DNA from: Massalongia carnosa
Taxonomy: Eukaryota
Length of the DNA: 64,000 nt
Direction: 5' to 3'
Assembly (NCBI GenBank): GCA_965645245.1
Contig: OZ287078.1
Location: forward strand, 744,001-808,000
Shown: one piece after another, positions 9,601 through 64,000 of the stretch
Position numbering within the stretch: position 1 is the stretch's first letter
Layout: every line of letters begins with the position of its first letter
Notes under the pieces: model-generated
Told to the model about the DNA's origin: nothing
What the model saw: only the letters and a program-made list of their open reading frames with translations
Database searches by the model: none
Made by a program: the position numbers and the translations under genes

Positions 9601-9639
9601 CTATTTGGGGGATTTCTATTCTGGATCGGAACTGTGTAA
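6631..9639 (+). CDS. GPI7: GPI ethanolamine-phosphate transferase 2 (GPI7/LAS21/PIG-G), multi-exon
   Basis: FATGFFPYKPFLPG, FDKVIFMVVDALR, SPTITMPRIKAITTGSIPSFLD, YGDDTWLKLFP, HYLGLDHIGHK, LCGDHGMNDAGNHGGS, SSYVEEEQYFWYW, LRTHLFIWSVFSPKYLY. Confidence 0.93.
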
Positions 9640-12728: not shown

Positions 12729-15223
12729 TAGATAGATAGATATAGTCTTACGCCGATATGTCACCGGCCGAAGGCCGGCCCATGCGGGATGGACTACTAT
12801 GCTACAGGAAAACCTTTAAGAGGAATAAAAACCCATTGCCAACGCTGCGCGTACGAGGTCCCAACGATCTCCAGCTGTGCTGCTCGTGTGCTTTTTTGAT
12901 GAGTCCCTTGAATGAAAAGAAAATTATTGCTTGTATAACAAGCTTGCCGATAAAGAAAATTGCGCCAAAACGCCAGCTTCGATAATCCATCTCGTTACCT
13001 GCTTCAATGTTTTGGATGTTTCGAGTATCGTACGATATTCGTTGGTATTTATACGCCGAAACAGCTCTTGTCTTCCCGTCATTAATGGGCAGTGCATGAT
13101 TACGTGTTTGGCCGTTTGCTGGGGCCAACCACAGCTGCAGGCCGCCGTCGTCACGTTGGGAACTCGTCGTTTAAATAGAAAACTTGCCAGACCTATTTTT
13201 TCCGTGCGAATTTGGGTAGCTAACGCGCTTTCCGCTTTTGCCAGATTGTCGTGGATTTTGATTCTTCCTTTGGTTAAGGAAGCGCGCTGTGCTTCGGTGG
13301 GACAGGGTACGCGATCTTGATATGCTTTCCAGGTTGTCTGCCATTTCGTTTTGTAATGCGCTTTTGTGGCTTTCGTGTGAGCGCTGCGACTCATCCTTAC
13401 TGCATTGGCTGTGAGCATGTGTTGCTCCGTAGGCGTGATCCAGGGTGGGTGCGTGGTTGGGGCTGTGGTGGGTATGGCGCTGATCACTGTGTTTTTGGCC
13501 CATTCGTGCTTGAGCATTCCTGGGGTCAGTTTCGGCGATCTTTTCTTGCCCGCTTTTCCGCGCAACTTGTGTTCTATCTCCTTGCAGAAAGACGAGATGA
13601 GTCTCTTTTGCCCGGCGGTTCGTTGGCGATATCTCGCTTTGACTTGTAATTCTTCTAAATGCGATTCTATAGACGTCATGTGCGTTTCGGTTTCCAATAC
13701 TGGAAGCGGGGTGGCCCGAAATGCACCCGTTATTGTTCGCAAGCACTTGTTTTGCATGACCGCCAGCTTGCTCGTCGCGGCTTTGCTTTTCCCTATTTCT
13801 TTCGGTGTGTGCCATACGGCGGATGCATAAGTCATTGCCGGACGAACGACCGCAATATAAATCTGTCTGGCCTTCGAGAACGAGGCTCCCCATATGGACG
13901 CGGAGATCCTGGTCAGTGCACACGATTGTTTCGTCATTTTTTCTTGAGTTTTCCGTACATGGGCTCCCCATCTCAGTTTGGTGTCGATTTGTAGACCCAG
14001 CACCCTGATATCCGGTTTGGGTTCGATCGTTTTTGTGCTTATCCTGATGGTGGCCGTCATGTTGAATTTTTTCGGGTTTCTGGACAGATGAATAAGCTCG
14101 TATTTGCTCGGGGCAAACACGGAGCCGTGGCGTAAGGACCATCTCTCGCATTCCTTGTGAATTCTTTCTAGCGTTCTGCAGTTTTCCTCGGTGCTTTTGC
14201 CGTATGCCAGAACGTTGACGTCGTCTACGAAGCCCAGTGAGCTTGTATTCGTGCCTGGTCTTTGACATATTTCCAGCAGGTCTGCGTTGTAGAATAAATA
14301 TAGAATCGGGGAAATGGGAGAGCCCTGGGGGATCCCTGTTCTCACATCGAATACGTCGGTGGTGCGTCGTTGGATCGTAAGCGTTGTCCTTCTTTCGCTC
14401 AAGAAGCTCTCGGTCCAATCGGTAATCCATTTGGGAATCTTTCTCTTTCGCAGATTGTGTATCAATCTTTGGTGAGATACGGTATCGAACGCTCCTGCTA
14501 CGTCCATGCTGAGCAGGGTTGCCACCTTGTCGTTGCCCTGGCCCCAGACCGTGTGCACCTGTTCCGTGAGAAGTTCCAGTGCCGATTCGGTGGATCTTCC
14601 TCTACGAGCCCCCATCTGCATGTCGGGTAGCAGGTTGTTGCTCTCGGCCATGTGGGTGATTCTTCTCGCAATCACTGCTTCTAGTAGCTTGCCCATTGTG
14701 TTCAATAATGCTATCGGTCGATAGGCTTTCGGGGTCGTGTAATCGTCTTTGCCCGGTTTTTTCAGCGTGATTGTGTTTGCGATTTTGAAGGCTCGAGGAT
14801 GGTACGCGAGCGTTACGCAGGCCTGATACAGTGGGGTGAGTAGGTCCGTTAGCTTCTCGGCGCATGCTTTTAGGATTCTGTTGGAAATGCCGTCCGGTCC
14901 GGACGCCTTGTCCGCACTGAGTCGTTGGATGTTCGTAAGAACCTCTTCTCTCGTTATTCTCTCTGGGCATTCGATTTCGGCGGGATAGAACGCTCCGGGT
15001 ATGTCGCGTAGATCCGCCGGGGGCGGTGCTGGAAAGAAAGTGCTCTTAAGCATTTCGGATTTCTCTTCGAATGTGAACGCTTTTTGATCGTTGAATTCGA
15101 GCGATGGCATTTTCGGTACTTCGCGGCCTGCATTGCTCTTGTTTTTGGCCCATTTGGCGAGTTTCCAGATTCCCTGGGGCGATTCGGTGGCGCGGCTTAT
15201 CTCTTTACGAAACGAGAGCGTTT
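12729..15223 (-). mobile_element. 5'-truncated Tad1-clade LINE (GC-rich family) with (TATC)n tail
   Basis: 11-bp TSD GAATCAGTTGA (12718-12728 and 15224-15234). 3' hairpin CCGGCCTTCGGCCGG and microsatellite tail. Confidence 0.88.
12924..15110 (-). CDS. Non-LTR reverse transcriptase (ORF2 fragment: RT + C-terminal CCHC; no RNase H seen)
   Basis: KASGPDGI, YRPIALLNTMGK, DVAGAFD, GIPQGSPISPILY, FVDD, CSCG..QTAKHVIMHC. Uninterrupted. Confidence 0.92.
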   Translation of the reverse strand: MPSLEFNDQKAFTFEEKSEMLKSTFFPAPPPADLRDIPGAFYPAEIECPERITREEVLTNIQRLSADKASGPDGISNRILKACAEKLTDLLTPLYQACVTLAYHPRAFKIANTITLKKPGKDDYTTPKAYRPIALLNTMGKLLEAVIARRITHMAESNNLLPDMQMGARRGRSTESALELLTEQVHTVWGQGNDKVATLLSMDVAGAFDTVSHQRLIHNLRKRKIPKWITDWTESFLSERRTTLTIQRRTTDVFDVRTGIPQGSPISPILYLFYNADLLEICQRPGTNTSSLGFVDDVNVLAYGKSTEENCRTLERIHKECERWSLRHGSVFAPSKYELIHLSRNPKKFNMTATIRISTKTIEPKPDIRVLGLQIDTKLRWGAHVRKTQEKMTKQSCALTRISASIWGASFSKARQIYIAVVRPAMTYASAVWHTPKEIGKSKAATSKLAVMQNKCLRTITGAFRATPLPVLETETHMTSIESHLEELQVKARYRQRTAGQKRLISSFCKEIEHKLRGKAGKKRSPKLTPGMLKHEWAKNTVISAIPTTAPTTHPPWITPTEQHMLTANAVRMSRSAHTKATKAHYKTKWQTTWKAYQDRVPCPTEAQRASLTKGRIKIHDNLAKAESALATQIRTEKIGLASFLFKRRVPNVTTAACSCGWPQQTAKHVIMHCPLMTGRQELFRRINTNEYRTILETSKTLKQVTRWIIEAGVLAQFSLSASLLYKQ

Positions 15224-15298
15224 GAATCAGTTGAATTGTCTTTTGATCAACTCAGATTTATTTTATATTATTAAGTAGTAATGTTATAACTGTGTAAT

Positions 15299-44700: not shown

Positions 44701-45642
44701 GAGCTGAAGACCGAGCAACAGAAGGGGAATCGCCAGGAACACGTACTTTCCTCAGACCAGAAGGCGGAAGACGTCTTCCACTACAGCGAGGTAGTGGGGA
44801 ATCCCCGAGCTTATCAGGGGACAAGGAAGGGGCTGAAATAACACGGTGTTCTGGAGTTTTAGGCATTATGATTGTGCTTGTAGAAGGGAGAAAGGAAAGA
44901 GAACGATGGGGAGTTTTATGAGAAGTGGGGGATTATTCACACTTTCTTTACGAAACCTCACTGGAATTCACTACACTGGCCGATAACTCACCAGTTCTAC
45001 TAGAGATATGACTCAAACGACATAAACGTAGATTCTGGATGCAGAGATTGAGTCGCATGTGCGAGACTCTAAAGGCAAAAGCATGAATCATGTTCGGAAT
45101 ATCAAAGGACTCATAACAGGGGTCTCGACGGGGGTTAGGCTGAGGATAAATTGAGACTGTATAAAACGCGACAGCAAGCTCATGAGGACATGAGCCCTAG
45201 GAGGAGGGTACTGTCAGGATAGCTTCCTACAAGACATGAAGCGGTCGCACCCTTCTGCAGGGGGTGCGCGGGAAGACACCCATGCGATAGTCTCAACCGG
45301 TCTAATCATGTAATAGTAATTAGTTTGACGAACGTGGCCTGATCAAGGTAGGGCCATCGGATAAAGAGCCCTTTGCCCACCTCTTTCGGAGGGCCACTGA
45401 TCAATCTATTGATTACACTCCACCTACCTCTATTCTATAGCGACTCCTATTCTATTGTCCTACCACTACTGTAGAGCCATATAGTCACACTGTTCGTACT
45501 TCGCCTCACATAATACTTAGTCCGCAGACCAAGCTCTATTCTACTACAACTAGGACTCCTGCTATGTTCGCTGTAGGTCCTGCCGTCCGCACCACGCTTG
45601 GTCGAACCGTTAAACTACCGTCACCGCACTGAAGCAGCAACA
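41722..45642 (+). mobile_element. 5'-truncated, decayed Ty3/Gypsy chromovirus #3 (RNaseH-IN-chromodomain, PPT, 3' LTR from 45212; LTR end uncertain)
   Basis: [92 protein letters not shown] marks the PPT/LTR boundary. Confidence 0.82.
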
Positions 45643-47922
45643 GTAACGTCGATTTTGATACTCTGAAACTTTCGCATTAGATTCTAACCATCTTTCTTAT
45701 TCATTTGAGCCTATCTTGAGCAATAACGCACCAGAATTGGGTATGGTAGAGCTCCTTCAAGGCTCTTGCAGAGTTTTTCTGCTGGTCGCATCCATCCAAC
45801 TCACTCCAAAAAACGCCCCCTAAAAATTACAAAAAACAAAAAATATCTACAATTCCGTCAAAAATTGCTCAATTTTCGATATCTCTTCGATTTCATTGTC
45901 GCATAAACCTCATATATTATCACCGAAATCATCAACAAAAAACACTCACTGTCGCGTTACTGTACACCTGTTGTCGTCGCGTCAAAATCTTTGAAGTTTA
46001 TTTTCATATTTACGGTTTCTGGTACCTGCGCAAGCAATATATTTCTTGCATATTTAGTGCATATATCGTGCATAACTTTATTTTAGGTTTTCTTGTTCAT
46101 CATCGAACGGCCAGACCAACAATCTACTTTCGGACATCCATTTCTCAACATTGGACGGCCCGCTGAAAGGAAGGGGAAAAAGTCTGGAATAGGGTTACAC
46201 CGAAGGCCCTGTTTCAGGCAAATCAGAATAGGAGGTCCCTATTTTCTAAATCGTACTTGATTTTATTTTTGATTAAAAAACACTAAAATTATCCTATTTG
46301 ATCAAAATTTTCATTATTTTCAACTACCGTAGTGTCTGGTAAAGGGTTAAATCAGACTTATTGCCTAAGCGAGGAACGGTCTACTTTAACCCGATAAGGA
46401 TATATTTGACTTGTTATTGTCAATTAAATACGGATAGGAAAGAAAGAGTTATTTGACCAGTAAATTGGTGTAATATCTATTTTGACTAGTACGTCTGGGG
46501 AACGTCAGAATAAACTATTTGGTGGTGATAAAAGGGATATAGAAAAGGAATTTTCAACCAGGTAATCAACCCGGTAGCACACTCGGCACTCCCTAGAACT
46601 AGGCGATTTTTGGCGAGACCACCCCTTTAAGGCCCCCCACCTAGAAATTTATCGGCCCGCCCAAGTACCCCCCCGGGTCCCCCCTAAAACGACTCTCCCG
46701 CGCCATCTTCAGTAGCCATGATAGGGAGCTCACCCCCATCAGATGAGTTTATAGAAGCTATAGACCAGTCAGGGAAATTTTCGTCCGCACCCTCCATACC
46801 GACCCCTAAAGCGAAAGCCTTCATTTCTCTATCTGGTGAATTTACTTCCAATTTACCTATGCCGTTATTACATTCGAATATTGGACTAAGCCCGCCAATC
46901 AAACGCAATAAAAGACGAACATTCGACGAGTATTCGATTGAAAGTCAAGAAGTCATCAATCGAACGAAATCAATTCAACTACTAAATAGGGCTAAAAACG
47001 CACTATTGGAGTCATTCGTACTAGATCAAAATCCCGAAACGGCTATTGTCATTGTGTAACAGGGATGGAAATAAGTCAGCTAAGCCACTGAGTCAAAAGG
47101 CTACTATTGTAGTTCTCCTATAGAGACACTACCGCTTATTACACTACATAACGTATTTACTAGCCAATCGGGCCAGCTACCCATTCGGGCCACCCACCAA
47201 AACCAACACCAAAATTTCAACTTTTTCGCCTTGCATCTTGTACCACACCACCATGGCCTCATCAAATGAAACTATCATTGATGTTAATAGTTCTGATACT
47301 AGAATAGAATTAGCTATCGCTGAGTTGAAAAGAAATCCTGCTATATCTCAGCGTCAATTAGCTAAGGAGTATAACGTGCCTAGATCTACCCTTCAAGCAC
47401 GTATTCACGGTCGGAAATCAGCCAAAACCTATCATGAAGAGTCTCAACGATTATCAGTAATTGAGGAAAGGGCTCTGATTGGCTGGATAGAACAGATGAC
47501 CGAGTGGGGCTGGCCCCCACGCATACAACATCTAGAAAGCATGGCAAAAAATCTTCTGAATGCGAAGGGCGATAGCGAGCCTTTGGGTCATTGTTGGTAT
47601 CAGAATTTTTTAAAGAGACACCCTGATTTCAAGTGCAAACACAGTAGAAATCTGGATCAAGTCCGAAAAGATGCTGGAAACGTTGATATCATAAAAGACT
47701 GGTATCAATTATACTCGACTACCCGAACGAAGTATGGAATAGCCGACGGAGATGTATACAACATGGATGAAAAATGGTTTGCCATGGGCATCGCCGATAG
47801 CTCCAAAGTGTTAGTAAAAGTCACTGAAGCTGAAGCATTCAACGTCTATTCGGGTAATAGGGACTGGGTTTCAATGATTGAATGTGTTTCGTCTTTGGGA
47901 TCCGTTTTACCAGCTTATTTTA

Positions 47923-50262
47923 GGCTATTTTGAATCGGACTTCGCTCAAAATACTCTCTCGACCCCTTGAAGCGTACAAACTTACACTGAACGAGTAAAT
48001 TCAACGCTTTCTCCGCGATTTGTGTTTCAGCATGAGACTGCTTGAGATGTAGCTGAAAAGTGCAGTCGGCATCCTACCGCTTTACCTTGACGGAACATAG
48101 GTCAGGTCATGGTGATCTTCGAGAAGATTCTCAAACCTATTGAAAACCCTCGGAAACTGTTGTTCACTACTACTCCATTCCGTCCTTTGATTTTTCGAAT
48201 GTGGTTTCAGAACAGGGTTTCATTGAGAGTATTCAAGGCTTGCATCGACCGACTATGGTGTCTTTCTGAGTTTATAATGTGCCTTCCCTCGTGATTGAGC
48301 AGGCTTCAGGTCTACGAGATCCAACGATCAGCTTGCCACCTTCTCCACTCTTATGATACAATGGAAAAGCTTGATAGTAAACGATCTTGCACTCGAGAGC
48401 AATGCAGTTAAATATCATTTCCTAAACAGTGCTCCTGATATTCTGAGCTCTTTTCACCGCTGAATATCAGAACTCGATACAGATAAGACTCGAGACGGAC
48501 GAGCCTACACCATCGGTCCTCCTCCTTCTACACCATCGGTCCTCACCACGGAGACGCCAAAGGCCTCACCGTGGGGCGACCGTCAAACATAGATTTGCTC
48601 CTATCTCTTCGCATCAAAACAATGCTAATTTAACGCGTTCACACGCGTCGCAGACGTACGTACGGAAGAGGATACGAAGGCCAACCGCCGGGGGGTAGAA
48701 TGCACGCGTCCCTGCACCATGCTTCTAAGGGTTCAAGTCCCTTCATGCAGTCATCAGCTGGAAAAAGATGTGGACCAAAGGAGCCGCATCATCCCCCACC
48801 CGGGCACAGTCGACACGCGTTCTAGCTCCTGAGAGTTCAAGTCTCCCCATGCAGTCATCAGCTGGGATCAACAGAACGCGTAAAGGCACCGGGGCGAATG
48901 CTGTCACCTCAAGAAAACTCCATCTCGGAGCAGAATAACAATATCCCATTTAATAGGCCCGGCCTGTTAAATAAAATCGAGGAAAACAAAGTCACAAAAC
49001 ACATAGTCATCAATCACACGTTGTACAAAGCACACAGTCACAAAGCACACAGTCACAAACATACAGTCACAAACACACAGTCACAAAACACACAGTCACA
49101 AAAAACACAGTCACAAACCAATAACACGTCCCTGTGAAGGGGGTTCTGCGGGGGCTCGTTAAGACAGATCTGCACCCCGTTAATATCGGAGTACATATTT
49201 TTAGAGGTTCAAGTCCTTTCTAGCAGTCATCAGCTGAAAATAATGTATTTTGACACGGGCATGGTGTGGATTTGACACGGGTAGACCTCGATGGATCACA
49301 AAACGAATGAAAAGAGTTCAGCGGAACTTCGTTAATATTGTTCTCGAAGACCTCGTTAATAAGATTTTCATAGACCTCGTTAACAACGTTCGGTCATACT
49401 CTTAAAGGTTTAAGTCCTTTCATGCAGTCATCGGCTGAGAGCTAAAGACGTACGACACGGGTCAGCTATGTCTATCACACGGGGTCTCCTTCGTCTACAA
49501 CACGGAGCCCTCCGGCTGAAAGAAATAAAACATATAGACACATAGTGTAGGGTCACACCCTACACGATACAAGGGATTTGGGTTATGAAAACCATCCGAT
49601 TGATGGCTACCGTGAGCAACACGGCCCGAACCGGAGTCGTACCGGGGATGGTGGAGGCAACCTAGTCATCAAATAGGACACCCTTGGGACAAGAAGAGGG
49701 CAATATACGAGGAACCCGTTAATTGATAACAGTCTAGGCCCTGAGCTAATAGACGAATTTCAAACGAGCACCCCTCCGAGTTGTCCTCGACTTGTTTTGG
49801 TTAGTAGGGGCGGAAAATCGATACTATACTGCCTGGTCAGGAGCATAGCTGTCGAAATCCCTGCGAGACATGGTCGGTTCATAAACGGGAGACCTTTATG
49901 AATAACGCGAAGTGGGCGTAAAAAACCCGTGAGGCGTGGTATGCAATGGCGGCCACCGTACGGAGACCGTCTGCATAGCCCGAGAGGACAGTATGCGCAT
50001 GTCGGTGTATATAGAGCAGGGAATGTCTATCTCGCTCGTAACGAGACCCCGTCGGTTCGCCGGCGCATGGGCTACGGCTAGACTCGCCCTTGATATATGC
50101 TTAAGGAGTAAACTGGGTTTGACCTGGGCGAAAGGGACGTCGTTCACCCCAATCGTAGAATTCATCAATAGTCTTGGGCCGTAAAACGCACCAGTGAGAT
50201 GAACGAAAACTGGGATAGAGACTTCACGAAAGAGATGTCAACTCTATTTTATCATTCTTAGC
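47923..50262 (+). other. ~2.3-kb non-coding, repeat- and structure-rich segment fused 5' of a truncated LINE inside one TSD pair
   Basis: 14-bp TSD ACCAGCTTATTTTA (47909-47922 and 52789-52802) encloses this segment plus the LINE. No ORF over 90 aa. Confidence 0.8.
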
Positions 50263-52788
50263 GCAGTAATGAACGTCGTTCATGATATCGAAATTGCGAA
50301 TCGAAATAAAAGCGTTTTATCCTGTTTATTACTCGATGTCAAAGGCGCATTTGACTTTGTCTCGATTAATCAACTGCTAAATGTCATGAAAAAGCTGAAA
50401 TTATCTCGCATAATAATTCAATGGGTCAAGCATTTCATGACAAAACGATCGATCAATTTGATATTCGATGAAAACAAAAGCAAAACATATTATGTCGAAT
50501 CAGGAATTCCACAAGGTTCACCAATCTCGCCTATTCTATTTCTGATTTACATTCGTCACTTGTTTCCGAAAATACGAATGAAATTTAATGCACATTCTCC
50601 CAGTTTTATTGACGATGTTGCAATATATGTCGAAAATAAAACTGCAAAACAAAATTGCAAAGAAATCGAAATCATAGTCAAAACAGCTTTTGATTGGGCC
50701 GCATCGAATAATGTCAAATTTGATGACGATAAATCCGAGCTGATTCACTTCGAAAAGACAAGAAATGTATCGAAAGACACATTGGAATTACCAAACGGGA
50801 CAGTACTAGAACCGAAAAATGTAGTCAAATGGTTGGGCGTCTGGTTAGACCGGAAACTGAATTTCAAAAAACACGTCGAAACGCGAATCTCTTCTGCGAA
50901 TCGATCGTTTTTTGCAATTCAGAATTTGATGAAATCCGAATGGGGTCTGAAACCGACCGCATGCAGACAGCTCTATTTGTCATGCATTATTCCTATTTCG
51001 GACTATGGCTCAGAAATTTGGTATAATGGTCAAAAGAAATATGAAAAACTATTTCAGAACCTACAAAATCGAATGATTCGAAAGATTTTAGGAACTTTCA
51101 AAACCACACCTATTCAGGCGATGGAAATTGAATCACATGTTTTACCAGTTAAACTTCGATTATTAATGAAAAATCAAAAATACGCAATTCGATTATTGAA
51201 GATTGCCGAAAATAACCCTATTTGTCAAAGAATTCCAAATACATATTCGATAAAATTCGAAAACATCGGTTTTGACACTAGTTTATGGAACAACAAATAT
51301 GCCGAATGGAACGAAGACGAAAAACAAACAAATAAACGACATCCTAGTCAGCTCATTCGCGTTCTTCATTCCGTTTCCGACATAGTTCACAAAACTGATG
51401 AGTTTGAACAATCAAACCATTTTATTAAACCTTGGAAATCGCCGTGCAAAATCGAATTTCAAATCGAAAATACAAAGGAATCTGCTAAATCAAGTTATTA
51501 TTCGACCTTATCCAAAATTCAATCAATGAACTCCGATAAATCCCGAGTTTTACTTTATACGGATGGATCAAAAATCGAATTTGCAACGTCTGCAGTCACA
51601 TTTGCGCCAATTATGAGGAATTGGAGTAGTATTATCAATAATTTTGATCGATTTATCGAAAAAGATTGTCTGATCAAGTATCATACGATTTCGAAAAGCT
51701 GGAAATTAAGCAAACAGTCAAGCATTAAAAATGCTGAACTGCATGCAATTTTACAAGCAATGAAATGGGTCTATAAATTGTCTAATACTAATATTTTATC
51801 GAACTTGGAAAAAACGATTTGGATTTTTTCTGATAGTATAAACGCGATAAACGAAATTCAGAACTTGAAAAATCATATTTTCGCAAGACAAATTCGAAAG
51901 CTCGCAAAACGCTTATTTGAAAGCAATTATCAGGTGATTTTGCAATGGGTTCCGAGTCATTCGAATATTACCGAAAACGAAATTGCAGACAAAATAGCAA
52001 AGACGGGCCATAATCAAATCCTAGTCGAGTCCTCGGCTATAACATTTGATTATGTAAAAGATCAAATAAATCAAAATATGCTAACCACATGGACGAATCA
52101 ATGGCAACAATGCAAATCAAAAGGCAAATACTACGAGAAATTCGAAATGAAACCTGGCATATCGAGATTTTATTATTTATCAAACAACTGTTCCAAATTG
52201 ATATTTGCTACTATTATGCAATTAAAATTCGGACACGGCTATTTTCGATCATATTTACATCGATTGAAAGATTATAATTCGTCAAAATGCTCAAATCGAT
52301 GCAATCAACGACAAACGCCAGAACACTTGTTATTGAATTGCATTCACTATTTCGATGAAATTCAAAACATGAAACAAACCATCGATACTACGATCAACTT
52401 GAATATGTTGTTTAATACAAAAATCGGAAATGACATTTTGATTAAATTCATTGTCAATAACAAAATCGCGAATAGAAAATGGATACTAGGTCAGCTTGAT
52501 GACGATATTTTCGAAACTGGAGGTTGGGGAGAGATCGAACAGTAAAATCAGAAACGATTTATGCTGAAACAGTTACGAACTTACAAAGATAAATTGTAAA
52601 ATCGATATTTTTCGATTACTATAGGTTGTTACTAACACGGAGTAAAAATGGGGAAAAATTGACGATACATAGATGGGTTATAAAGGGTTGATTTATTTGT
52701 AATATAGAAACATATCCTAAAATAGTTTAGTGTCATAACCTTAGGTTGAATACACTTAATGAATAAATAAAAAAAATTAAATAAAAAA
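50263..52788 (+). mobile_element. 5'-truncated Tad1-like LINE, subfamily A (open RT C-half + RNase H + CCHC, ORF 50269-52545), 3' UTR and A-rich tail
   Basis: DVKGAFD, GIPQGSPISP, FIDD, YTDGS, AEL, FSDS, WVPSH, NEIAD, QTPEHLLLNC. Closely similar to 58858-61378. Confidence 0.92.
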
Positions 52789-55544
52789 ACCAGCTTATTT
52801 TATATTTCAAGGAGTTCGAGTACAGCAAGCCTGGCTAGGTCCTATCAAGGATAATAGGACCACCTTACAAGTCAGTCCCAATGGATGGACCACCAACGAA
52901 ATAGCACTCCATTGGCTGAAAGAGGTGTTCGATTTGCATACTCGACATACGCAGGGCGTTTATAGACTTCTTATACTCGATGGATACGAAAGTCATGTAT
53001 CTATCGATTTTATGACTTATTGCGAGCAACATAAAATCATACAGCTTTGTTTGCCCCCTCATTCAACTCATCTATTGCAACCTCTAGATGTGGGCGTTTT
53101 TTCACCTCTAGCTAAGGCCTATAAAAAACGGGTAGCAAATCACTCTCGCTATAGGGCCGTCAACGTTTCGAAGATAGATTTGGCTAGAAAGGAGGCCATG
53201 ACTATTATCAACATCAGCTCTGCATGACGAGGTGCAGGTCTAGTACCACTCGATCCAAATTATGTTCTAGCTAAAGTATCGAGATCAAAACCTTTTCCGC
53301 GTGATATTAACGCTATCAGTACTCCGAAAACAATCAAGAAAATCAGAGAGACTAGTGAGAACCTTCTACAAAATATAACTCCGTCTCTTCGAGGGCCTGT
53401 TGAACAGCTGAAAATCATAGCTCTTAATGCTATTGCTGATAAAACCATTCTAACACACTCAAATCAGGAGCTTATTGATAAACAAAAGACTCGACGTACA
53501 AAGCAGTCTAGAAAGGGTTGTGAAAAGGCTAAGATGCTGACTGTGGGTGCAGCACGTACAATGATGGAAGAAAAGGAGAAGGCGGCTGAGGCAATATCCA
53601 ATCAAAAGGCTAGATATCATGCCTTAAACGGAAAGGTAAAATTTGCGAAAATAGTATATAAAGAGATGGGTATGGATATTGATATTTTCATGTAATTATA
53701 TTGGAAATAGATGATGATAAAATCATGTAATAATGGTTGTTAAGTTGATAAGATGATTTGGTCAAATTTTTGGTGGGGTGGCCCGACTGGGTAGCTGGCC
53801 CGTTTGGCTAGTAAATACGTTATAGGTGCCCCGCGCCCGGTACGTCATCGTACCTCCTTAGGCGCTCATGTATTGCGCCCGCTGGCTAGCAGTACTGAGT
53901 ACCGCTGTAACACATTGATAACATCAATTTTCTACTAACAAAGAAAACAATCAAGCCTATAGCAACGCTGGAAATGATTGATTGAAAATTGAATAGGGTG
54001 CTGGAACAAACTAGCAAAGTTCCAGAAACAACGGGACAATCGGTGCGACCTACGCAAGCAAATTCGAATGGAAATTCGAATTTGATTAAAAACGTCAACC
54101 AAGCCATCCGGAGGGGAACAGCCGGGGTCCCGGGGCCGCAGCTCAACGATTCAACTAAAACATGGAGTCAAATGCTCGGAATAGCAACTGCTAATTCCAA
54201 AAATTAGACTACCGTTTCTCGAACGAAAAAATCGAATAACAATTCTAACTCGAACAAATTCGATAATACGGAAGATTTCAACGCGATTAAATCAAGACGA
54301 TTAATAATTACACCGAAAGCTCAAATCGGCGACATCGATTCACTTTTTTTATTATTCATTAAGTGTATTCAACCTAAGGTTATGACACTAAACTATTTTA
54401 GGATATGTTTCTATAATACAAATAAATCAACCCTTTATAACCAATCTCTGAATCGTCAATTTTGCCCCGTTTTTACTCCGTGTTAGTAACAACCAATATC
54501 AATCGAATTTCGATTTTACAATTTGTCTTTGTAAAGTTCGCAAATGTTTCAGCATAAATCAATTCTGATTTTACTGTTCGATCTCTCCCCAACCTCCCGT
54601 TTCGACAATTTCCAGCTGGCAAGCATTCGTCAAACGCCAGCAGCAATAAGCCAACCCCCAAAATATCGGTACCCTATATTTTGATATACTGAAACTTTCC
54701 CAACTTATTCTCCTCATTCTTCTCATTCATTTGAGCCTACCAGAAGCTTAAACCCATCAGAATTGGGTACAGGAGAGCTCTTCCACTGCTCCTGCAGAGT
54801 TTTCCTCGCGGTCTGTCCGCCCCTTAACCAAAAAACGCGTCCAAAAAATCTACAAAATACAAAAACACCAACAACAACGTCAAAAATCGCTCGATTTTCG
54901 ATATTTCTTCGGTTTAATTGTCGCATAGATCTCATCTATTATCACAAAAATTATCTACAAAATATCATCACTGTCGCGTAACTGTACAACCTGTTCTCGA
55001 GACAACAAAACTTCTTGGTGTTCATTTGAAATTTAAGGTTACCGGTACCGTATACACTATTCCATTTTGGGTTTTTTCGATTTTCGTTGAACTGCCGACC
55101 AACAATCTGCTGAAACGAAGGGGAAAAACGTCTCAAATAGGGTTAAACCAAAGGCCCTGTTTCAGGCTAACCAGAATAGGAAGTCTCATCTCTCTCATTG
55201 TACTTGATTTTTATTTCTGGATCAAAAACATTTTTTAAAAAAAAAAAAAAATTTTTTCTGTTCGATCGTAAAATTCTTATTATATTCCATATATCGCAGT
55301 GTCAAGGTAAAGAGTTAAATAAGATCTATTGCCTAAGCGAGGAACGGTCTATTTTAACTCGACTAGGATTTATTTGACTTGTTATTGTCAAATAAATAGG
55401 GTTTGGAAAGCAAGAGTCTTTAGACCAGTAAATCGGTGTAAAAACTCTCTATTCTGACTATTACGTCCGGGGAACGTCAGAATAAATTATTTGGTGGCGA
55501 TAAAGGGGATATAGCAAAGGCAACATTGATTTATTTATAAATCC

Positions 55545-57127
55545 ATGTTTAACGCGGTAATGAACCGCCGGAATATACCAAGGACACCACCCCCAGCGGG
55601 TCCCGCCCCCCTATCGACCCCTTACCCGGCCCCCCCCCGACACTCCCCGGGACCATCTCCGGTAGCGTTGATAGGGAGCTCTCCCCGTCTTGAACCTATG
55701 GATCAAACTCGCGAATATGCATCAGCCCCGTCAACACCGACACCAAAGGCAACGAAATTCCCATCGGGTCCATTTTCCACTATCTTGCCGATGCCTTCAT
55801 TGAACTTAAACATTGGATCAAGCCCACCAATCAAACGAAATAAAAGACGCACATTTGACGAACATTCGAGAGATAGGCAAGAAGCGATCAATCGGGCAAA
55901 TTCAATTGAGCTTCTAAAGTCGGCCAAAAAAGCATTATTGCAATCATATGTACTGGACCAAATCCACAAACGGCTATCGTAATTGACAACGTTAATTCGT
56001 TGATTTCGAAAAAATCAATCAATTTACAAACATCCTTAGATATGATTAACTATAAAATGGGCATAGTACTTGATCAAACTAGTCATCTTTCCTCAAAAAC
56101 GTCACAACAACAAACGACTCCACTACAGAATGGTCCAAAAATCCAAAAACCTGTTGTTAAATTGAACGAAAATTCAATTATCGAAAATCAGACCATTCGC
56201 AAAGGAGCTACCGGGGTCTCTGGTAACAATGTTAGCACAACCGGTACATGGAGTCAAATGCTTGGAAAAGCAACCGAAAACTCCGAAAATTGGACTACTA
56301 TTCAAAGGAAAAGTTCGAATCATAATTCGAACAAAGTCGATCGATTTGATGCAATCAAGGCCAGACGACTCGTGATTTCACCGAAAAATCCTGACGCTCA
56401 AATCGACTCTATGAAGTTGCGTGATGAAATTAACGCGCTATTAAAAAACGCAAATTTAAACATCATCGTCAATACTGTTGAAAAGTCCAAAACCGGTCAG
56501 AATATCGTTCTCACCACTAGCCCTGACAACAATGCCGAAGAATTGTTGAAAAATAAATCTTCATGGGAACACATTTTCGAATCACAAAGAATTCGAAAAG
56601 ACGAATCCTGGTTTAAAGTCATAGCACACGGAGTAAATATCTCGTTATTCGATAATAACATGCAATATTTGCAAACCGAAATCGAAAAATACAATTCGAA
56701 TATGCAACTATGCGATTTACCAAGATGGCTTGCTCGGGATCGTCAAAACAAAGTCACGTCGTCGGTAGTTTTGACTTTCAATAATCAAAATCAAGCGTCA
56801 AACGCGTTAAGAGGCGTGAATATCGCGGGTAGACATTGTGACACGGAAATATTTGCTTCCGTTCGTCCAAACACGCAATGTATTAATTGTCATAAATTTG
56901 GACATAAGCATTATCAATGCAAAAGTCCGGCAAAATGCAATATATGCGCACAAAGTCATGAAACGCATAATCATGAATGCACAACATGCAAGTCTAAAAT
57001 CGCATGCGCACATGCAATTCTGAAATGCGTCAATTGCAACAAAAATCATCAATCGAACGATATAGGTTGCGAAATGTTTATCTCGCTAAATCCTAGAAAA
57101 TCGAATGATGAATTAATGCTTGGTTAA
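55545..57127 (+). pseudogene. LINE ORF1 (gag-like, C-terminal Cys/His knuckles), 1-nt frameshift near 55962
   Basis: CINCHKFGH..C, CNICAQSH, CVNCNKNH..C. The frameshift is evident against the 47 kb copy (DQNPxTAIVID). Confidence 0.85.
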
Positions 57128-60100
57128 TGGCGGGACAACATTCGTTGACAAATATCGAAAATACACAAAATGTCAAATTTATTCAACATAATTGTGCAAA
57201 GTCAACGAATGCAATGATTTCGTGTCTGGAATATGCATTATTAAATCGTGTTGATATTGTTTTATTTCAGGAACCATGGACGCGAGATCAAAAAACAATT
57301 TCCCATCCGTCATTCACATGTATTATGCCGAAAATAGCGACTTATCGGCCGAGAGTAGCTATATTCGTTACAAAATGAAATCCAAAATTACAATGCACGC
57401 CTAGAACGGATCTTATAAACGATACTGATCTGCAAATTATCGAAATTACAATTGATGAAGTTCGAAAAGTGCAGATCTTTAACCTTTACAATGAAAAAAG
57501 TCTAAACGATCGAGAAACATATACAATCGATCGACTTTTAGTTAAATATAAACCTATATCAACTGATCAATTTGTCATATGTGGAGATTTCAATGCACAT
57601 CATAGCTGGTGGAATTCGAAGATTCAAAATGCAATTCGATCAGAAAATCTAGTCAAATGGTTAAAATTAAACAAATGTAGTTTGATAAATACGCCTGATC
57701 TATATACATTTTTTACTCATTCAGGAAACTCTTCATCTATTATTGATTTAACATTTGCAAATTCTAAAATCGAAAACGCAATTACAAATTGGTCAATCGA
57801 TGAAAACGCAGTCACGGGTTCAGATCATGAAGTTATTCGATTTGAACTTATCGCGTCTTTCAAGAACTTGACGTCACACGCAACCGCATTATCGAATAAA
57901 TACAACTGTAATAAAGCCGATTGGGATAAATTCGCGAAGTTTCTAGACGAAAATGCAGTAAACTACGAGTCCCAAATACAAAGTCTATTGAACAATTATC
58001 AATTTGATGAATCAGCGTTATATTTGCAAAACGTTATCAAAAACGCGGCTGAAATGTTTATTCCGAAGACAAAAATATGCGCAAAATCGAAAAATTGGTG
58101 GTCGCAAGATTTATCCGGACTTCGAAAAATCATGTGTAGACATCGTCGAGAATGGAAGAATAATCCGTCCTATTTTAGTCATCAAACATTTAGACATAGT
58201 CGAATCGAGTACTTTCATGCAATTCGAAAAGCGAAACAGCAAACTTGGTTGGCTTTCCTCGAAAACGCAGCGAATAAAGACGTATTTACAGCTTATAAAT
58301 ACACTAAACCGCGCATGTTCGAAAAAATACCACCTAATCAATATGAAAATAAGTTAAATGTTCAATTCGATCACAAATGCGATGCGTTTGTGTCAGCAAT
58401 GTACCCAAAAAACCCGTTCACGGATGATAATATTGAAGATTTAACGAATCAAGACAGCGAAAATGACAACAATTGGCCGAATTTAACCGAAAATGAATTG
58501 CAAAATGCGATTAGTTTGTTTAATCCAAAGAAATCATGTGGACCTGATGCAATCAATTTCACAATAATTCAAAAATCGTTTCAACCATTGAAAAACGTGT
58601 TTTTTACTATTTATTCTAAGTTTATACAAATCGGTTTTCACCCGTTATGTTGGCGAACAGGACTCGGTGCTGTTTTAAAAAAACCTAATAAACCAGACTA
58701 CTCGCTGCCAAAATCATATCGAATTATTACCTTACTGAATTGTCTTGGTAAAATTGCGGAGAAAATAGTTGCTAATCGACTAGCCTACCTCGGCGAAAAT
58801 TCGAGCTTGTTAGATACCGAACAAATGGGCGGACGGAAAAATCATTCTGCAATCGATGCGGTAATGAACGTCGTTCATGATATCGAAATCGCAAACCGAA
58901 ACAAAAACGTTTTATCATGTCTATTACTCGATGTCAAAGGAGCATTTGACTTTGTTTCGATTAATCAATTGCTAAATGTCATGAAAAAGCTGCATTTATC
59001 TCGCATAGTTATTCAATGGGTCAAGCATTTTATGACAAAACGATCGATCAATTTGATATTCGATGAACACAAAAGCAAAACGTACTATATTGAATCTGGA
59101 ATTCCACAAGGTTCACCAACTTCGCCAATTCTATTTCTGATTTATATTCGTTACTTATTTCCGAAAATACGAATGAAATTCAATGCTCATTCACCTAGCT
59201 TTATAGACAATATTGCAATATATGTCGAAAATAAAACTGCCACACAGAATTGCAAAGAAATCGAAATTATCGTCAAAACAGCTTTTGATTGGGCGGCAAC
59301 GAATAATGTCAAATTTGATGACGACAAATCTGAGTTGATTCACTTCGAAAAGTCAAGAAATGCATCAAAAGACAAAGTGCAATTACCAAACGGGACAATA
59401 CTAGAACCGAAAAATTCTGTCAAATGGTTAGGAGTCTGGTTAGACCGAAAACTAAATTACAAAAAACACGTCGAAACGCGAATTGCTTCTGCAAATCGAT
59501 CGTTTTTCGCAATTCAAAATTTAATGAAGTCTGAATGGGGACTAAAGCCAACTGCATGCAGACAGCTCTATCTGTCATGTATTATTCCTATTTCGGACTA
59601 TGGCTCAGAAATCTGGTATAACGGTCAAAAGAAATATGAAAAGCTATTTCAGAATCTGCAAAATCGAATGATTCGAAAGATTTTAGGCACATTCAAAACC
59701 ACGCCTGTTCAGGCGATAGAAATTGAATGGCATATTTTACCAGCCAAGCTACGATTGTTGATGAATAATCAAAAATACGCAATTCGATTATTGAAGATTG
59801 CCGAAAATAATCCTATTTGTCAAAGAATTCCCAGTACCTATTCTGTGAAATTCGAAAACATCGGTTTTGACACTAGTTTATGGAACAACAGATATTCTGA
59901 ATGGAACGAAGACGAGAAAAAATCGAGTAAACCTCATCCTAGTCAGCTTATCCGTATTCTTCATTCCGTTTCGGATATAGTTCACAAAACTGATGAATTC
60001 GAATCAGTAAATAATTTCATCAAACCATGGAAGCCGTCTTGTAAAATCAAGTTCCAAATCGAAAGATCCAAAGAAACAGCAAAGTCAAGTTATTATTCGA

Positions 60101-61140
60101 CTTTATCAAAAATCCAATCAATAAACGCCGATAAATCGCGAATGTTACTCTATACCGATGGATCAAAAACCGAGTTTTCAACTTCCGCTGTCACATTTGC
60201 ACCAATTATGCGAAATTGGAACAATTTCACCGATAACTTCAATCGTTTTATCGAAAAAGATTGCCTCCTCAAACATCATACGATTTCGAAAAGCTGGAAA
60301 TTAAACAAACAGTCAAGCGTTAAAAACGCTGAACTCTATGCGATACTACAAGCAATAAAATGGGCATACAAATTGACAATTGCGAATATTCTCTTCAATT
60401 TGGAAAAAACGATTTGGATTTTTTCCGATAGCATAAACGCGATAAACGAAATTCAGAACTTGACAAATCATACTTACGCAAAACAAATTCGAAAATTCTC
60501 GAAATGCTTATTCGGAAACAATTATCAGGTGGTTCTCCAATGGATTCCTAGTCATTCGAAAATCGTCGAAAATGAAATTGTAGATAAAGCAGCAAAAGCG
60601 GGACATAGTCGAATCCTAGTCGAGTCTTCGATAATAACATTTGATTATGTAAAGGGTCAAATAAATCGAAATATGTTAGCCACATGGGAGAATCAATGGC
60701 AACAATGCAAGTCAAAAGGCAAATACTATGAGAAATTCGAAATGCAGCCGGGCAAATCGAGTTTTTATTATCTGTCGAATAATTGTTCGAAATTAATATT
60801 TGCGACTATTATGCAAATGAAATTCGGACACGGTTATTTTCGATCATATCTGCACCGATTGAAAGATTATAATTCGTCAAAATGCACAGGGCGCTGCAAC
60901 GAAAGTCAAACGCCAGAACACTTATTGATGAATTGCATACATTATTCAAATGAAATCCTAAACATGAAACAAAATATCGATACCACAATTACTTTAAAAA
61001 TGATGTTTAATACTAGGATCGGAAATAATATTTTGATTAAATTTATTGTTGATAACAAAATCGCGACTAGAAAATGGATGCTAGGTCAGCTCGATGACGA
61101 AAATATCGAAACGGGAGGTTGGGGAGAGATCGAACAGTAA
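57127..61140 (+). pseudogene. LINE ORF2: APE endonuclease-RT-RNaseH-CCHC; TGA at 57376 and RT motif FIDD>FIDN
   Basis: QHNCAK, QEPW, GDFNAHH, IDLTF, GSDH, YRIITLLN, GIPQGSP, YTDGS. ATG overlaps the ORF1 stop (TAATG). Confidence 0.92.
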
Positions 61141-62100
61141 AATTAGAAATGATTTATGCTGGAATATTTACGAGCTTTACAAAAACAAATTGTAAAATCG
61201 ATATTTCGATTACTAAAGGTTGTTACTAACACGGAGTAAAAACGGGGCAATATTGACGATAGATAGTTGGGTTATAAAGGGTTGATTTATTTGTAAAATA
61301 AAACCATATCTTAAATTAGTTTAGTGACATAACCTTAGGTTGAATACACTTAATGAATAAATAAAAATAAAAATAAAAGTTTCGACAATTTCGTCTTCTA
61401 GCTGACCTAGTATCCATTTTGTAGTAGCGATTTTTGTTTTGACAATAAACTTTATCAAAATATCATTTCCAATTTTGGTATTGAATAACATATTTAAATT
61501 GCTTGTCGTATCGGCAGTTTGTTTCATTATTTGAATCTCTTCAAAATAGTGAATGCAGTTCAGCATTAGATGTTCTGGTGTTTGACGTTCGTTGCTTCGA
61601 TTTGTGCATTTCGACGAATTATAATCTCCCAATCGATGTAGATATAATCGGAAATAACCGTGTCCGAACTTCAGCTGCATAATGGTAGCAAAGATCAATT
61701 TCGAACAATTGTTTGACAAACGATAAAAGCTCGATTTGCCAGGTTGCATTTCGAATTTCTCGTAATATTTGCCTTTTAACCTGCATCGTTGCAATTGATT
61801 TGTCCATGTGTTTAGCGTAATTTGATGAATTTGACTTTTTAAATAGTCGAATGTGATCGCTGAGGACTCCGCTAGGATTTGACTGTGACCCGATTTCGCC
61901 GTTTTGTCTGCAATTTCGTTTTCGATAATTTTCGAATGACTAGGAATCCATTCCAGAATTATCTGATATTTGTTTTCGAGTAAACATTTTGCAAGCTTTC
62001 GAATTTGCTTCGTATAAATATGATTAGTCAAATGTTGAATTTCGTTCATCGCATTTAAACTATAGGAAAAAATCTATATTGTTTTTTCTAAACTCGATAA

Positions 62101-64000
62101 TTTTTTTATTTATTTTTTTATTCATTAAGTGTATTCAACCTAAGGTTATGACACTAAACTATTTTAAGATATGGTTTTATTTTACAAATAAATCAACCCT
62201 TTATAACCCAACTATCTATCGTCAATATTGCCCCGTTTTTACTCCGTGTTAGTAACAACCTTTAGTAATCGAAATATCGATTTTACAATTTGTTTTTGTA
62301 AAGCTCGTAAATATTCCAGCATAAATCATTTCTAATTTTACTGTTCGATCTCTCCCCAACCTCCCGTTTCGGTATTTTCCTCATCGAGCTGACCTAGCAT
62401 CCATTTTCTAGTCGCGATTTTGTTATCAACAATAAATTTAATCAAAATATTATTTCCGATCCTAGTATTAAACAAAATTTTTAAAGTAATTGTGGTATCG
62501 ATATTTTTTAATCAAAATGTCATTTCCGATTTTTGTATTAAACAACATATTCAAGTTGATCGTAGTATCGATATTTTGTTTCATGTATTGTATTTCATCG
62601 AAATAGTGAATGCAATTCAATAACAAGTGTTCTGGCGTTTGTCGTTGATTGCATCGATTTGTGCATTTTGACGAATTATAATCTTTCAATCGCTGTAAAT
62701 ATGATCGAAAATAGCCGTGTCCGATTTAAGACATGGTTTTATTTTACAAATAAATCAACCCTTTATAATCCAACTATGTATCGTCAATATTGGCCCGTTT
62801 TTACTCCGTGTTAGTAACAACCTTTAGTTATCTAAATATCGATTTTACCATTTGTTTTTGTAAAGCTCGTAAATATTCCAGCATAAATCATTTCTAATTT
62901 TACTGTTCGATCTCTCCCCAACCTCCCGTTTCGATATTTTCGTCATCGAGCTGACCTAGCATCCATTTCTAGTCGCGATTTTGTTATCAACAATAAATTT
63001 AATCAAAATATTATTTCCGATCCTAGTATTAATCAACATTTTTAAAGTAATTGTGGTATCGATTTTTTGTTTCATGTTTAGGATTTCATTTGAATAATGT
63101 ATGCAATTCATCAATAAGCGTTCTGGCGTTTGACGTTCGTTGCAGCGCCCTGTGCATTTTGACGAATTATAATCTTTCAATCGGTGCAGATATAATCGAA
63201 AATAACCGTGTCCGAATTTCATTTGCATAATAGTCGCAAATATCAATTTCAAACAATTATTCGACAGATAATAAAAACTCGATTTGCCCGGCTGCATTTC
63301 GAATTTCTCATAGTATTTGCCTTTTGACTTGCATTGTTGCCATTGATTCGCCCATGTGGCTAACATATTTCGATTTATTTGACCCTTTACATAATCAAAT
63401 GTTATTATCGAAGACTCGACTAGGATTCGACTATGTCCCGCTTTTGCTTCTTTATCTGCAATTTCATTTTCGACGATTTTCGAATGACTAGGAATCCATT
63501 GTAGAACCACCTTTTTTATTTTTATTTATTCATTAAGTGTATTCAACCTAAGGTTATGACACTAAACTATTTTAGGATATGTTTCTATATTACAAATAAA
63601 TCAACCCTTTATAACCCATCTATGTATCGTCAATTTTTCCCCATTTTTATTCCGTGTTAGTAGCAACCTATAGTAATCGAAAATTATCGATTTTACAATT
63701 TATCTTTGTAAGTTCGTAACTGTTTCAGCATAAATCGTTTCTGATTTTACTGTTCGATCTCTCCCCAACCTCCAGTTTCGAAAATATCGTCATCAAGCTG
63801 ACCTAGTATCCATTTTCTAGTCGCGATTTTGTTATTGACAATGAATTTAATCAAAATGTCATTTCCGATTTTTGTATTAAACAACATATTCAAGTTGATC
63901 GTAGTATCGATGGTTTGTTTCATGTTTTGAATTTCATCGAAATAGTGAATGCAATTCAATAACAAGTGTTCTGGCGTTTGTCGTTGATTGCATCGATTTG
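62101..64000 (-). mobile_element. Head-to-tail array of LINE 3' fragments: B (62101-62506), A-like (62507-62724), B (62725-63511), A (63512-end)
   Basis: Each piece aligns to the reverse complement of 60527-61378 or 52230-52788. Junctions are direct, with 1-4 nt of microhomology. Confidence 0.85.

Follow-up and report, generated by a model that had tools for sequence, protein, structure and literature searches.

A probable MINE/WEIRD-like composite retroelement in Massalongia carnosa joins a conserved structured RNA to a truncated LINE

Background

We investigated a 64,000-nt stretch of the Massalongia carnosa genome (GenBank assembly GCA_965645245.1, contig OZ287078.1, positions 744,001 to 808,000 of the forward strand; hereafter "the window", in whose coordinates all positions are given unless stated otherwise). 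Here, a block at 47923-52788 joins a non-coding passenger to a 5'-truncated long interspersed nuclear element (LINE) inside a pogo transposon. The larger part of the passenger is a conserved, high-copy module with a fixed last base, 50262, and the block is probably a composite retroelement of the MINE/WEIRD kind, made by a LINE reverse transcriptase (RT) that jumped from its template onto the 3' end of a structured RNA. MINE is an element of Magnaporthe grisea/oryzae which, besides the study summarized next, was reportedly described by Fudal et al. in 2005.

In the published account, MINE consists of a full-length, 1.1 kb non-coding RNA called WEIRD, whose function was not known, fused to the LINE MGL (PMC2104539). 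It gives 28 different LINE fusion sites among 33 elements, with hot spots of junctions, and target-site duplications (TSDs) of 10-20 bp, including one tripartite chimera with a 14-bp TSD (PMC2104539). As of 2007, it reports neither a solo copy of WEIRD nor a relative in other genomes (PMC2104539). Published WEIRD/MINE sequences are cited there under accessions EF585235-EF585237. The same authors set out criteria (i-v) by which LINE-mediated chimeric retroelements are recognized (Gogvadze et al. 2007, PMC2104539). Their account also covers the U6-L1 chimeras of mammals, in which a small RNA, complete and ending at a defined 3' base, is linked to a 5'-truncated LINE inside a single TSD, the link being explained by RT template switching (PMC2104539).

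Compared with these systems, the block shows a 5'-truncated LINE that retains its 3' end and tail, truncation sites that differ among copies, a common orientation of its parts, and short direct repeats. As far as the published description of MINE goes, the two agree in having a 5' non-coding RNA fused in the same sense to a variably truncated fungal LINE, in TSDs of similar length, in the lack of a known solo copy of the 5' RNA, and in hot spots of junctions. The first-pass annotation of this sequence had drawn the comparison with MINE and WEIRD, which these matching published features (PMC2104539) uphold; it had also proposed an undescribed system, and that part does not hold, because the MINE architecture was published in 2005-2007. 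Differences emerge as well, with WEIRD compared by its published description only: the module studied here has relatives in six metagenome contigs and in several sequencing runs and accompanies two LINE families, it measures 1.76 kb against about 1.1 kb, and it appears far more abundant. Relative to MINE as described, the present case documents a conserved fold, monomers resembling the T-arm of tRNA and a constant 3' terminus, and its junction lacks the GCC*A/U sequence.

The block is also like the U6-L1 chimeras, in that a single TSD encloses both a 5'-truncated LINE and, joined to it, an RNA whose 3' end is defined. However, U6 is an essential RNA of 0.1 kb (against 1.8 kb) with solo genes, and its chimeras are dead ends without a promoter-like, high-copy family. 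Short interspersed nuclear elements (SINEs) combine a tRNA-related head with a LINE-derived tail, and SVA elements begin with CT-rich hexamer repeats. The block shares with both the scheme of a B-box/T-arm-like or CT-rich tandem head and a LINE-recognized tail, mobilized in trans, but its LINE part is kilobases long and variable in extent, and its head is a large structured RNA. LINEs are further known to replace their 5' untranslated regions (UTRs), and some carry structured 5' RNAs, such as the R2 5' RNA/ribozyme. Here, too, the LINE coding sequence has a structured RNA on its 5' side, and a single LINE family shows leaders that are unrelated to one another; unlike these RNAs, the module joins the LINE at many internal positions and matches no ribozyme in Rfam.

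The architecture is a known one. What appear to be new are the relatives across genomes and metagenomes, the constant 3' terminus, the T-arm-like monomers together with a covarying fold, and the association with two LINE families. Our literature searches for later relatives of WEIRD or MINE yielded the 2007 paper, citations of the 2005 one, and nothing else. As far as these sources tell, MINE/WEIRD has since 2005-2007 been an isolated curiosity of one fungus; a module that behaves in the same way now has relatives.

Results

The block is an insertion in a pogo transposon

The pogo transposon has terminal inverted repeats (TIRs) and encodes a transposase with HTH_psq and HTH_Tnp_Tc5 domains, whose frame stays open as far as the insertion. 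The parts of the locus are as follows.

47148-47202: left TIR of pogo (94.6% inverted match to 53768-53823)
47909-47922: left copy of the TSD, ACCAGCTTATTTTA (from the sequence; X2 record 10 shows the site empty)
47923-48504, + strand: low-copy, non-coding 5' piece of the passenger, starting GGCTATTTTGA, with an 8-bp hairpin at 47926-47953 (from run contigs, alignments, folding and open reading frames)
48505-50262, + strand: conserved, non-coding, high-copy module with the 3' end ...ATCATTCTTAGC (from depth, loose contig ends at both limits and homologues)
50263-52545, + strand: LINE ORF2 without its 5' part, beginning ahead of RT motif A, including RNase H and ending at the stop (from homology, the open frame and Pfam)
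52546-52788, + strand: LINE 3' UTR and A-rich tail (from the sequence and the match to the full LINE)
52789-52802: right copy of the TSD (from the sequence)
53768-53823: right TIR of pogo (inverted match to 47148-47202)
54677-61378, + strand: full-length LINE of the same family (ORF1 ATG at 55698, ORF2 at 57379-61140, an unrelated 5' UTR of 1 kb)

The two copies of the 14-mer bracket 47923-52788 exactly, and the length of the TSD is given as 13-14 bp because the first A of the 14-mer is ambiguous with the A-rich tail of the LINE. We compared the region 47000-53500 with contigs from four public runs (X1, X2, X6, and X7) that hold the passenger. One X2 contig (record 10) links 47910 straight to 52791 and has the 14-mer once; it represents a pogo copy, or an allele, that lacks the block. 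Therefore, the entire block is an insertion with a TSD. This confirms the earlier claim that a 14-bp TSD inside the pogo transposase encloses it, the repeat being present at both ends and the empty site being at hand. The accompanying claim of one target-primed reverse transcription event stands as to a retro-insertion within one TSD; as to a single event for this copy it is less secure, since the copy of an older chimera is possible. With both the LINE and the pogo frames open, the event seems to have been recent.

In the pogo flank at 53181, an X2 contig is longer than the window by an 18-nt insertion, and contigs of X1 and X2 show several fixed single-base differences from it, so these runs represent close relatives and not the same sequence.

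The LINE part of the block (50263-52786) aligns over 2526 nt with 58858-61378 of the full-length element, at 86.7% identity. The element is broken near residue 494 of ORF2, upstream of RT motif A. From the joint onward, no stop interrupts the frame before the one at 52545, and Pfam recognized RVT_1 and RNase_H in 50203-52545; in the full LINE, ORF2 carries endonuclease, RT, and RNase H domains. This LINE family, which is AT-rich, has a 5' UTR of its own, present in two window copies (54677 and 45652) with the same terminus and unrelated to the module.

The passenger consists of two parts

The passenger at 47923-50262 had been annotated as one unit, a description that the run contigs contradict: contig depth and number shift at 48505, separating a low-copy 5' piece of 582 nt from a high-copy module of 1758 nt. 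The 5' piece is covered by single contigs (one at 48213) with a summed depth of 3.6-8.6k in X1 and 18-21 in X2, below that of the pogo flanks, and has no cover in X6 and X7. Across the module, the summed depth rises to 260-511k in X1 and 130-550 in X2, with 15-54 variant contigs per listed site, and the LINE part past 50262 reaches 0.7-1.1 million and 460-1450, respectively. Since summed contig depth is not a copy number, we used these values only to tell "single or few" from "many". Among the contigs listed, none spans the whole of this stretch or the joints at 47922/47923 and 48504/48505.

Contigs have loose ends at 48505 and 50262. Before 48505, they continue either into further 23-nt units CTACACCATCGGTCCTCCTCCTT (21 contigs of X1) or into unrelated AT-rich sequence (X2 and X7). 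Loose ends of both kinds imply that the repeated element begins near 48505, in tandem units whose number varies. The window copy has two such units, other copies have more, and here the extra 582 nt precede them. The internal features of the module are listed below.

48505-48550, + strand: two CT-rich tandem units of 23 nt (unit number varies; joints that go back 34/40)
48731-48760, + strand: first copy of a T-arm-like hairpin motif, with a 5-bp stem and the loop TTCAAGT, followed by CATGCAGTCATCAGCTG (motif scan)
48835-48864, + strand: second copy of the hairpin motif (motif scan)
48979-49133, + strand: about eight 15-nt units CACAGTCACAAA, an array specific to the window's version of the module
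49207-49236, + strand: third copy of the hairpin motif, preceded by a GTTAATA box
49408-49437, + strand: fourth copy of the hairpin motif, preceded by three CCTCGTTAA(T/C)A boxes
49541-50262, + strand: structured RNA core of the module (conserved fold and covariation)

Several earlier statements on the passenger are supported by these analyses. It lacks a credible open reading frame (ORF): the longest stop-to-stop frames under genetic code table 1 have 113 aa on the minus strand and 103 aa on the plus strand, and table 4 yields no long frame. It is more GC-rich than the LINE (0.47-0.48 against 0.33 for the LINE 3' part), and it does contain motif arrays, the 30-nt hairpin motif occurring four times where none was expected from 100 shuffles. 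Ends and a TSD of its own, which would have marked the passenger as an independent insertion, were looked for, and neither terminal inverted nor direct repeats were found; nor is there a second copy of the passenger in the 64-kb window.

Other statements hold in part. The "many hairpins" apply to the module, which is structured, and not to the first 580 nt, whose folding does not surpass that of shuffled sequences (z +1.44, with 96 of 100 shuffles as good). The passenger was also said to begin like the LINE 5' ends, folded into a hairpin. The 8-bp hairpin TATTTTGA/TCAAAATA is present, but the likeness is confined to 7-8 nt that TATTTTGA shares with the LINE termini at 54677 and 45652. Beyond this, the similarity of the 5' piece to the LINE 5' UTR, to the module, and to all other parts of the window does not exceed that of shuffled controls. 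We rejected a diverged LINE 5' UTR as the origin of the piece, its local alignment scores lying within those of the shuffles. Our preferred explanation, to which we give about an even chance, is that the 582-nt leader was read through from upstream of the source copy (5' transduction); a second template jump to a third RNA, which would make the block a tripartite chimera, is a somewhat less probable origin.

The module belongs to a family found in metagenomes

Written as an IUPAC pattern, the 30-nt motif retrieved seven metagenome contigs (L001-L007); it had no match in prokaryote genome contigs or in a viral contig collection. All but L002 share two blocks with the window, 49550-49688 and 49796-50176, at 68-76% identity, and among themselves five of the contigs are 73-86% identical along about 1150 nt. 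From these five alone, without the window sequence, we built an nhmmer profile; it matched 49135-50265 (E 6.7e-106) and 48543-48866 (E 2e-15), with no other match in the 64-kb window. Altogether, relatives are known from six metagenome contigs and from runs that bear four organism labels, besides one lichen metagenome run. On the taxonomic spread of the module, peptides from its spurious ORFs told little, giving 2 and 7 matches, five of the seven at 86-100% identity in long ENA contigs.

The family members, which come from several fungal genomes and metagenomes, measure 1.2-1.8 kb and follow a common plan. On the 5' side, they have CT-rich tandem units, a TATATAGAGCAGT box, and ACGCGT repeats; then come two to four monomers, each with a T-arm-like hairpin and reading GTTAATA ... 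GGTTCAAGTCC ... TTGCAGTCATCAGCTG, a conserved core of about 700 nt, and the end ...TTCTTRGC. The window version is longer, at 1758 nt, and has the additional 15-nt array and a further helix that L006 shares; like the others, it starts in the 5' tandem units and has the constant 3' end. Analogous 5' tandem units are present in L001, L005, and L007, and an unrelated flank stands directly 5' of the first unit in L003, where it is AT-rich, and likewise in contigs of X2 and X7.

The ACGCGT palindromes are repeated and conserved in the 5' half of the module (48600-48900 in the window; also L001, L003, and L007). They resemble MluI cell-cycle-box sites and are a possible clue to promoter regulation. 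The contig outside the family, L002, holds a single T-arm-like monomer (1574-1653 of that contig) in an otherwise unrelated, AT-richer context, so the monomer may exist outside the module family.

The module has a fixed 3' end and variable LINE partners

In the window, the module ends ...ATCATTCTTAGC (...CATTCTTAGC) at 50262, and the LINE follows upstream of RT motif A. A contig of run X6 (record 16) is 99.2% identical over 48532-50262, and the match stops at the same base, 50262. About 800 nt of further sequence follow in that contig, of which 30 letters are shown; these equal 55684-55713 of the window, that is, the full LINE from 14 nt before the ORF1 ATG at 55698. An X1 contig joins 50262 to 50302, a weak case with one contig and a 26-nt side, and an X2 contig (record 13) goes 5 nt past the module end and then into unplaced sequence.

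Three metagenome relatives end in the same way, with ...TTCTTGGC: ...ATTCTTGGC in L004, ...ATTCTTGG(C) in L007, and ...ATCCTTGGC in L001. Homology to LINE protein begins 2-5 nt after the module end in these contigs, at residues 340 (L004), 368 (L007), and 374 (L001). By nucleotide offsets, the joints of L001 and L004 lie about 110 nt apart. The LINE in all three is closer to a second family in the window, at 12924-15251 on the minus strand (43-53% amino-acid identity), than to ORF2 of the AT-rich LINE (25-29%). In a fourth contig, L005, the module ends ...CTCTAGC; the frame that follows has two CCHC knuckles and weakly matches the zinc-knuckle end of ORF1 in the window (pairwise E 0.002). Pfam recognized no domain in the short LINE fragments of L001, L004, L005, and L007.

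Thus, seven or eight different continuations follow the module end, in two LINE families, counting the weak cases L005 and X1 and the unplaced one in X2. This bears out the expectation that copies join different LINE breakpoints, in the window, in X6, and in the metagenome contigs alike.

At 50262/50263, there is no filler, the overlap is at most 1-2 nt, and module and LINE have the same orientation. The LINE reads ...GCAATCGAT up to the break and GCGGTAATG after it. The octamer ATCATTCT occurs at 50251-50258 and at 58841-58848, in the LINE 9 nt upstream of the break, and hence does not represent junction microhomology. It had been proposed as a feature of the junction, with a start at 58842 in the full LINE; it starts at 58841, off the break, and belongs to the module terminus, as X6 and the relatives attest. 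Splicing was rejected as a source of the joints: the LINE bases before the two junctions of known template are GAT/GAC and TC, not AG, and no GT follows the module, so splicing fails to explain them.

The module core has a conserved RNA fold

We aligned the last 720 nt of the module (49541-50262) with six relatives (alignment A2) and folded the alignment with RNAalifold, which gave 187 pairs in 29 helices. In this fold, 94.7% of cells are paired; the share drops to 36-45% once the 3' partners are shifted by 1-3 columns. Changes on both sides are found in 74 of the 187 pairs, against 31.4 +/- 4.0 in shuffled alignments (0 of 500 reach the observed number) and 11-19 in slid ones, although the fold was derived from the same seven sequences as were counted, which favours it over the slid controls. 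The window core itself folds better than 20 of 20 shuffles (z -2.17). Several G-U pairs are invariant; if the RNA came from the opposite strand, they would turn into C-A mismatches, and the module RNA is therefore the + strand, the LINE sense. An additional helix is inserted in the core of the window module and of L006 (49585-49632 in A2; about 50028-50090 in the window) and is absent from the other five copies; as it is confined to these two, it suggests two sub-lineages of the module.

None of the 21 sequence pairs shows a 3-nt periodicity of substitutions (p > 0.35), so the conservation of the module is not that of a protein-coding sequence. A mitovirus-like or other coding passenger was rejected on the same ground and for lack of a long frame in table 1 or 4. 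In Rfam 15, the module had no match at E <= 1, either within 45000-64000 of the window or in the six module contigs, and no HDV-like or other ribozyme family was matched; across L001-L007, a single unrelated microRNA match was recorded, in L002 (E 0.067). The description of the passenger as a long structured RNA is accordingly right for its larger part, the module, which is structured, non-coding, and fused to the LINE in the same sense, and wrong for the unstructured 582-nt piece.

The T-arm-like hairpin has a 5-bp stem and a TTCAAGT loop closed by G-C, a shape and loop found in the tRNA T-arm and nearly those of an RNA polymerase III (Pol III) B box. Across 20 monomers with 17 stem versions, pairing is seen in 97 of 100 cells, but taken alone this number is weak support: the arms consist of purine and pyrimidine runs, which also pair when slid (80-84 of 100 at -1 and at +1 to +3, 61 at -2, and 41 at -3). 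ARAGORN found no tRNA in the window. A tRNA-derived SINE is not what we see, the resemblance being limited to the T-arm/B-box-like hairpin in a unit of 1.2-1.8 kb. With T runs inside the module, a Pol III transcript of it is unlikely.

Discussion

Mechanism

A template jump would account for these observations as follows. The LINE RT would prime at the pogo target and copy LINE RNA from its tail, then leave this template, often within the RT-coding region, and resume synthesis at the 3' end of a free module RNA (...UUCUUAGC), running on to its 5' end. The resulting chimera would combine the module's putative internal promoter with a LINE 3' end and could be re-transcribed and mobilized in trans; a chimera that can be transcribed and mobilized would explain the high copy number of the module. 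The window copy may stem from a fresh jump or from the retrotransposition of an older chimera. A jump landing just before ORF1 would provide the LINE with a new leader, and at this point the template jump meets the alternative of a LINE 5' UTR, discussed below.

Several points weigh against this mechanism. Neither a free module RNA nor a solo module gene was seen, and the listed runs have no RNA on record. The junctions number only seven or eight, with L005 and X1 weak and X2 record 13 leading into unplaced sequence. Five of them cluster in ORF2-equivalent residues 494-639, which is unexpected for purely random jumps and suggests a hot spot or selection. The switch consensus GCC*A/U, described for MGL only, is absent at the window breakpoint. 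In X6, the module stands directly upstream of ORF1, as a 5' UTR would. Its summed depth in X1 is about one third to one half of that of the LINE 3' part, which would also fit a LINE subfamily using the module as its leader. The dependence of the fold on the sequences counted, noted above, belongs here as well.

Alternative explanations

The position of the module in X6, its abundance, and the failure to see a free RNA or a solo gene lead to an explanation that we hold to be unlikely but worth weighing at length, in which the module is a genuine LINE 5' UTR with an internal promoter, an alternative to the UTR at 54677, and the window copy is internally deleted. Short internally deleted elements are known from other LINEs, and the conserved fold would then be a cis-acting 5' RNA needed by the LINE. 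The first-pass annotation had raised a similar caution, partly borne out here, that the segment might simply be the 5' UTR of another LINE. The X6 contig sides with it, since the module stops 14 nt before the ORF1 ATG and the 30 letters of its continuation match the start of the LINE's ORF1; so do the promoter-like arrays and tandem 5' units, a summed depth of the same order as that of the LINE, and the fact that, in the roughly five contigs reaching past its end, the module is never without a LINE behind it. However, X6 provides the one junction of the seven or eight that is near the ORF1 start; the rest are internal, and none of the four metagenome junctions lies there. For deletion to be the cause, its start would need to fall exactly on the last base of the module in the window and in the relatives of X6, and on the homologous base in L001, L004, L005, and L007. 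Moreover, the module, at 68-76% nucleotide identity, precedes two LINE families whose ORF2 products are 25-29% identical, and the AT-rich LINE has a conserved 5' UTR and terminus of its own. The constancy of the last base in eight contexts, together with the two LINE families, argues against a 5' UTR followed by deletion.

Two or more independent DNA-level events, for example a truncated LINE that arrived first and a later insertion or recombination at its 5' junction, would suit the composite passenger and the dense transposon nest that surrounds it. We regard this as very improbable: no TSD, TIR, long terminal repeat, or A-tail of its own marks 47923, 48504/48505, or 50262/50263, the three parts share one orientation within one perfect TSD, and the joint of module and LINE is the constant 3' end of the family. 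Equally little credence attaches to a housekeeping RNA (telomerase RNA or a ribosomal DNA spacer transcript) or a virus-like RNA captured by chance. WEIRD has been proposed to be a housekeeping RNA in the published account (PMC2104539), and a large, conserved, non-coding fold would agree with such an origin; on the other hand, Rfam yielded nothing at E <= 1 for the window copy or the six contigs, the 30-nt motif is absent from the viral contig collection, no ORF exists in table 1 or 4, the copies are many and variant with variable tandem units, and the fusion to LINEs recurs in distant relatives. An assembly chimera is scarcely credible. The region is repetitive and short-read contigs break at each repeat border, but a misjoin would not create a perfect 14-bp outer duplication matching an empty site, nor would it place the inner joint at the constant end of the module family.

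Implications

Returning to the template jump as the favoured origin of the block, we put forward, as a tentative proposal that is rather less likely than its opposite, that the module is the first recognized member of a widespread family of structured RNAs of filamentous ascomycetes, which captures the 5' ends of LINE cDNAs, unlike SINEs with their mimicry of LINE 3' ends. If this were true, the fold and the T-arm-like hairpins would bring a processed, possibly self-cleaved, 3' end (...UUCUURGC) into the LINE RT as the favoured acceptor of jumps. Each jump would yield a promoter-bearing chimera capable of further mobilization, and a jump of the X6 type would give a LINE a new 5' leader. WEIRD would then be a diverged member, and the absence of a solo WEIRD gene would be explained.

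The relatives, the fixed end, and the fold make a MINE-type RNA approachable by comparative structure analysis, a covariance model, and end mapping. They also bear on how LINEs acquire unrelated 5' leaders and on the birth of composite non-autonomous retroelements. Should the fold direct template jumping or self-processing, the module would represent a new class of functional RNA.

Other elements of the window

In its other parts, the window is a dense nest of transposons: Gypsy, MULE, piggyBac-like, pogo, and LINE sequences. The "full-length" LINE has a disrupted ORF1: reading from the ATG at 55698 meets a stop after about 95 codons, and the long frame of ORF1 (55910-57127) is in a different phase, from which we conclude that a frameshift or stop lies near 55980. 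Inverted fragments of LINE 3' ends (61378-64000 and 54344-54612, minus strand; 82-99% identity to 51796-52786) adjoin its tail and its 5' end, forming a nest of tail-to-tail LINE insertions. The second LINE 5' end, at 45652-47050, comprises a 5' UTR and the start of ORF1, with the terminus ATTTTGATAC, and stops about 100 nt before the left TIR of pogo, which may have inserted into or beside this fragment.

The second LINE family (12924-15251, minus strand) is GC-rich and has a 775-aa frame in which RVT_1 is the only domain, with an AT skew of -0.3; no module lies upstream of it in the window. Finally, of ordinary genes one fragment was examined, a piece of a glycosylphosphatidylinositol (GPI) ethanolamine-phosphate transferase at 8968-9639, which shows at most 64% identity to Pezizomycotina proteins, with lichen-forming fungi among the best matches.

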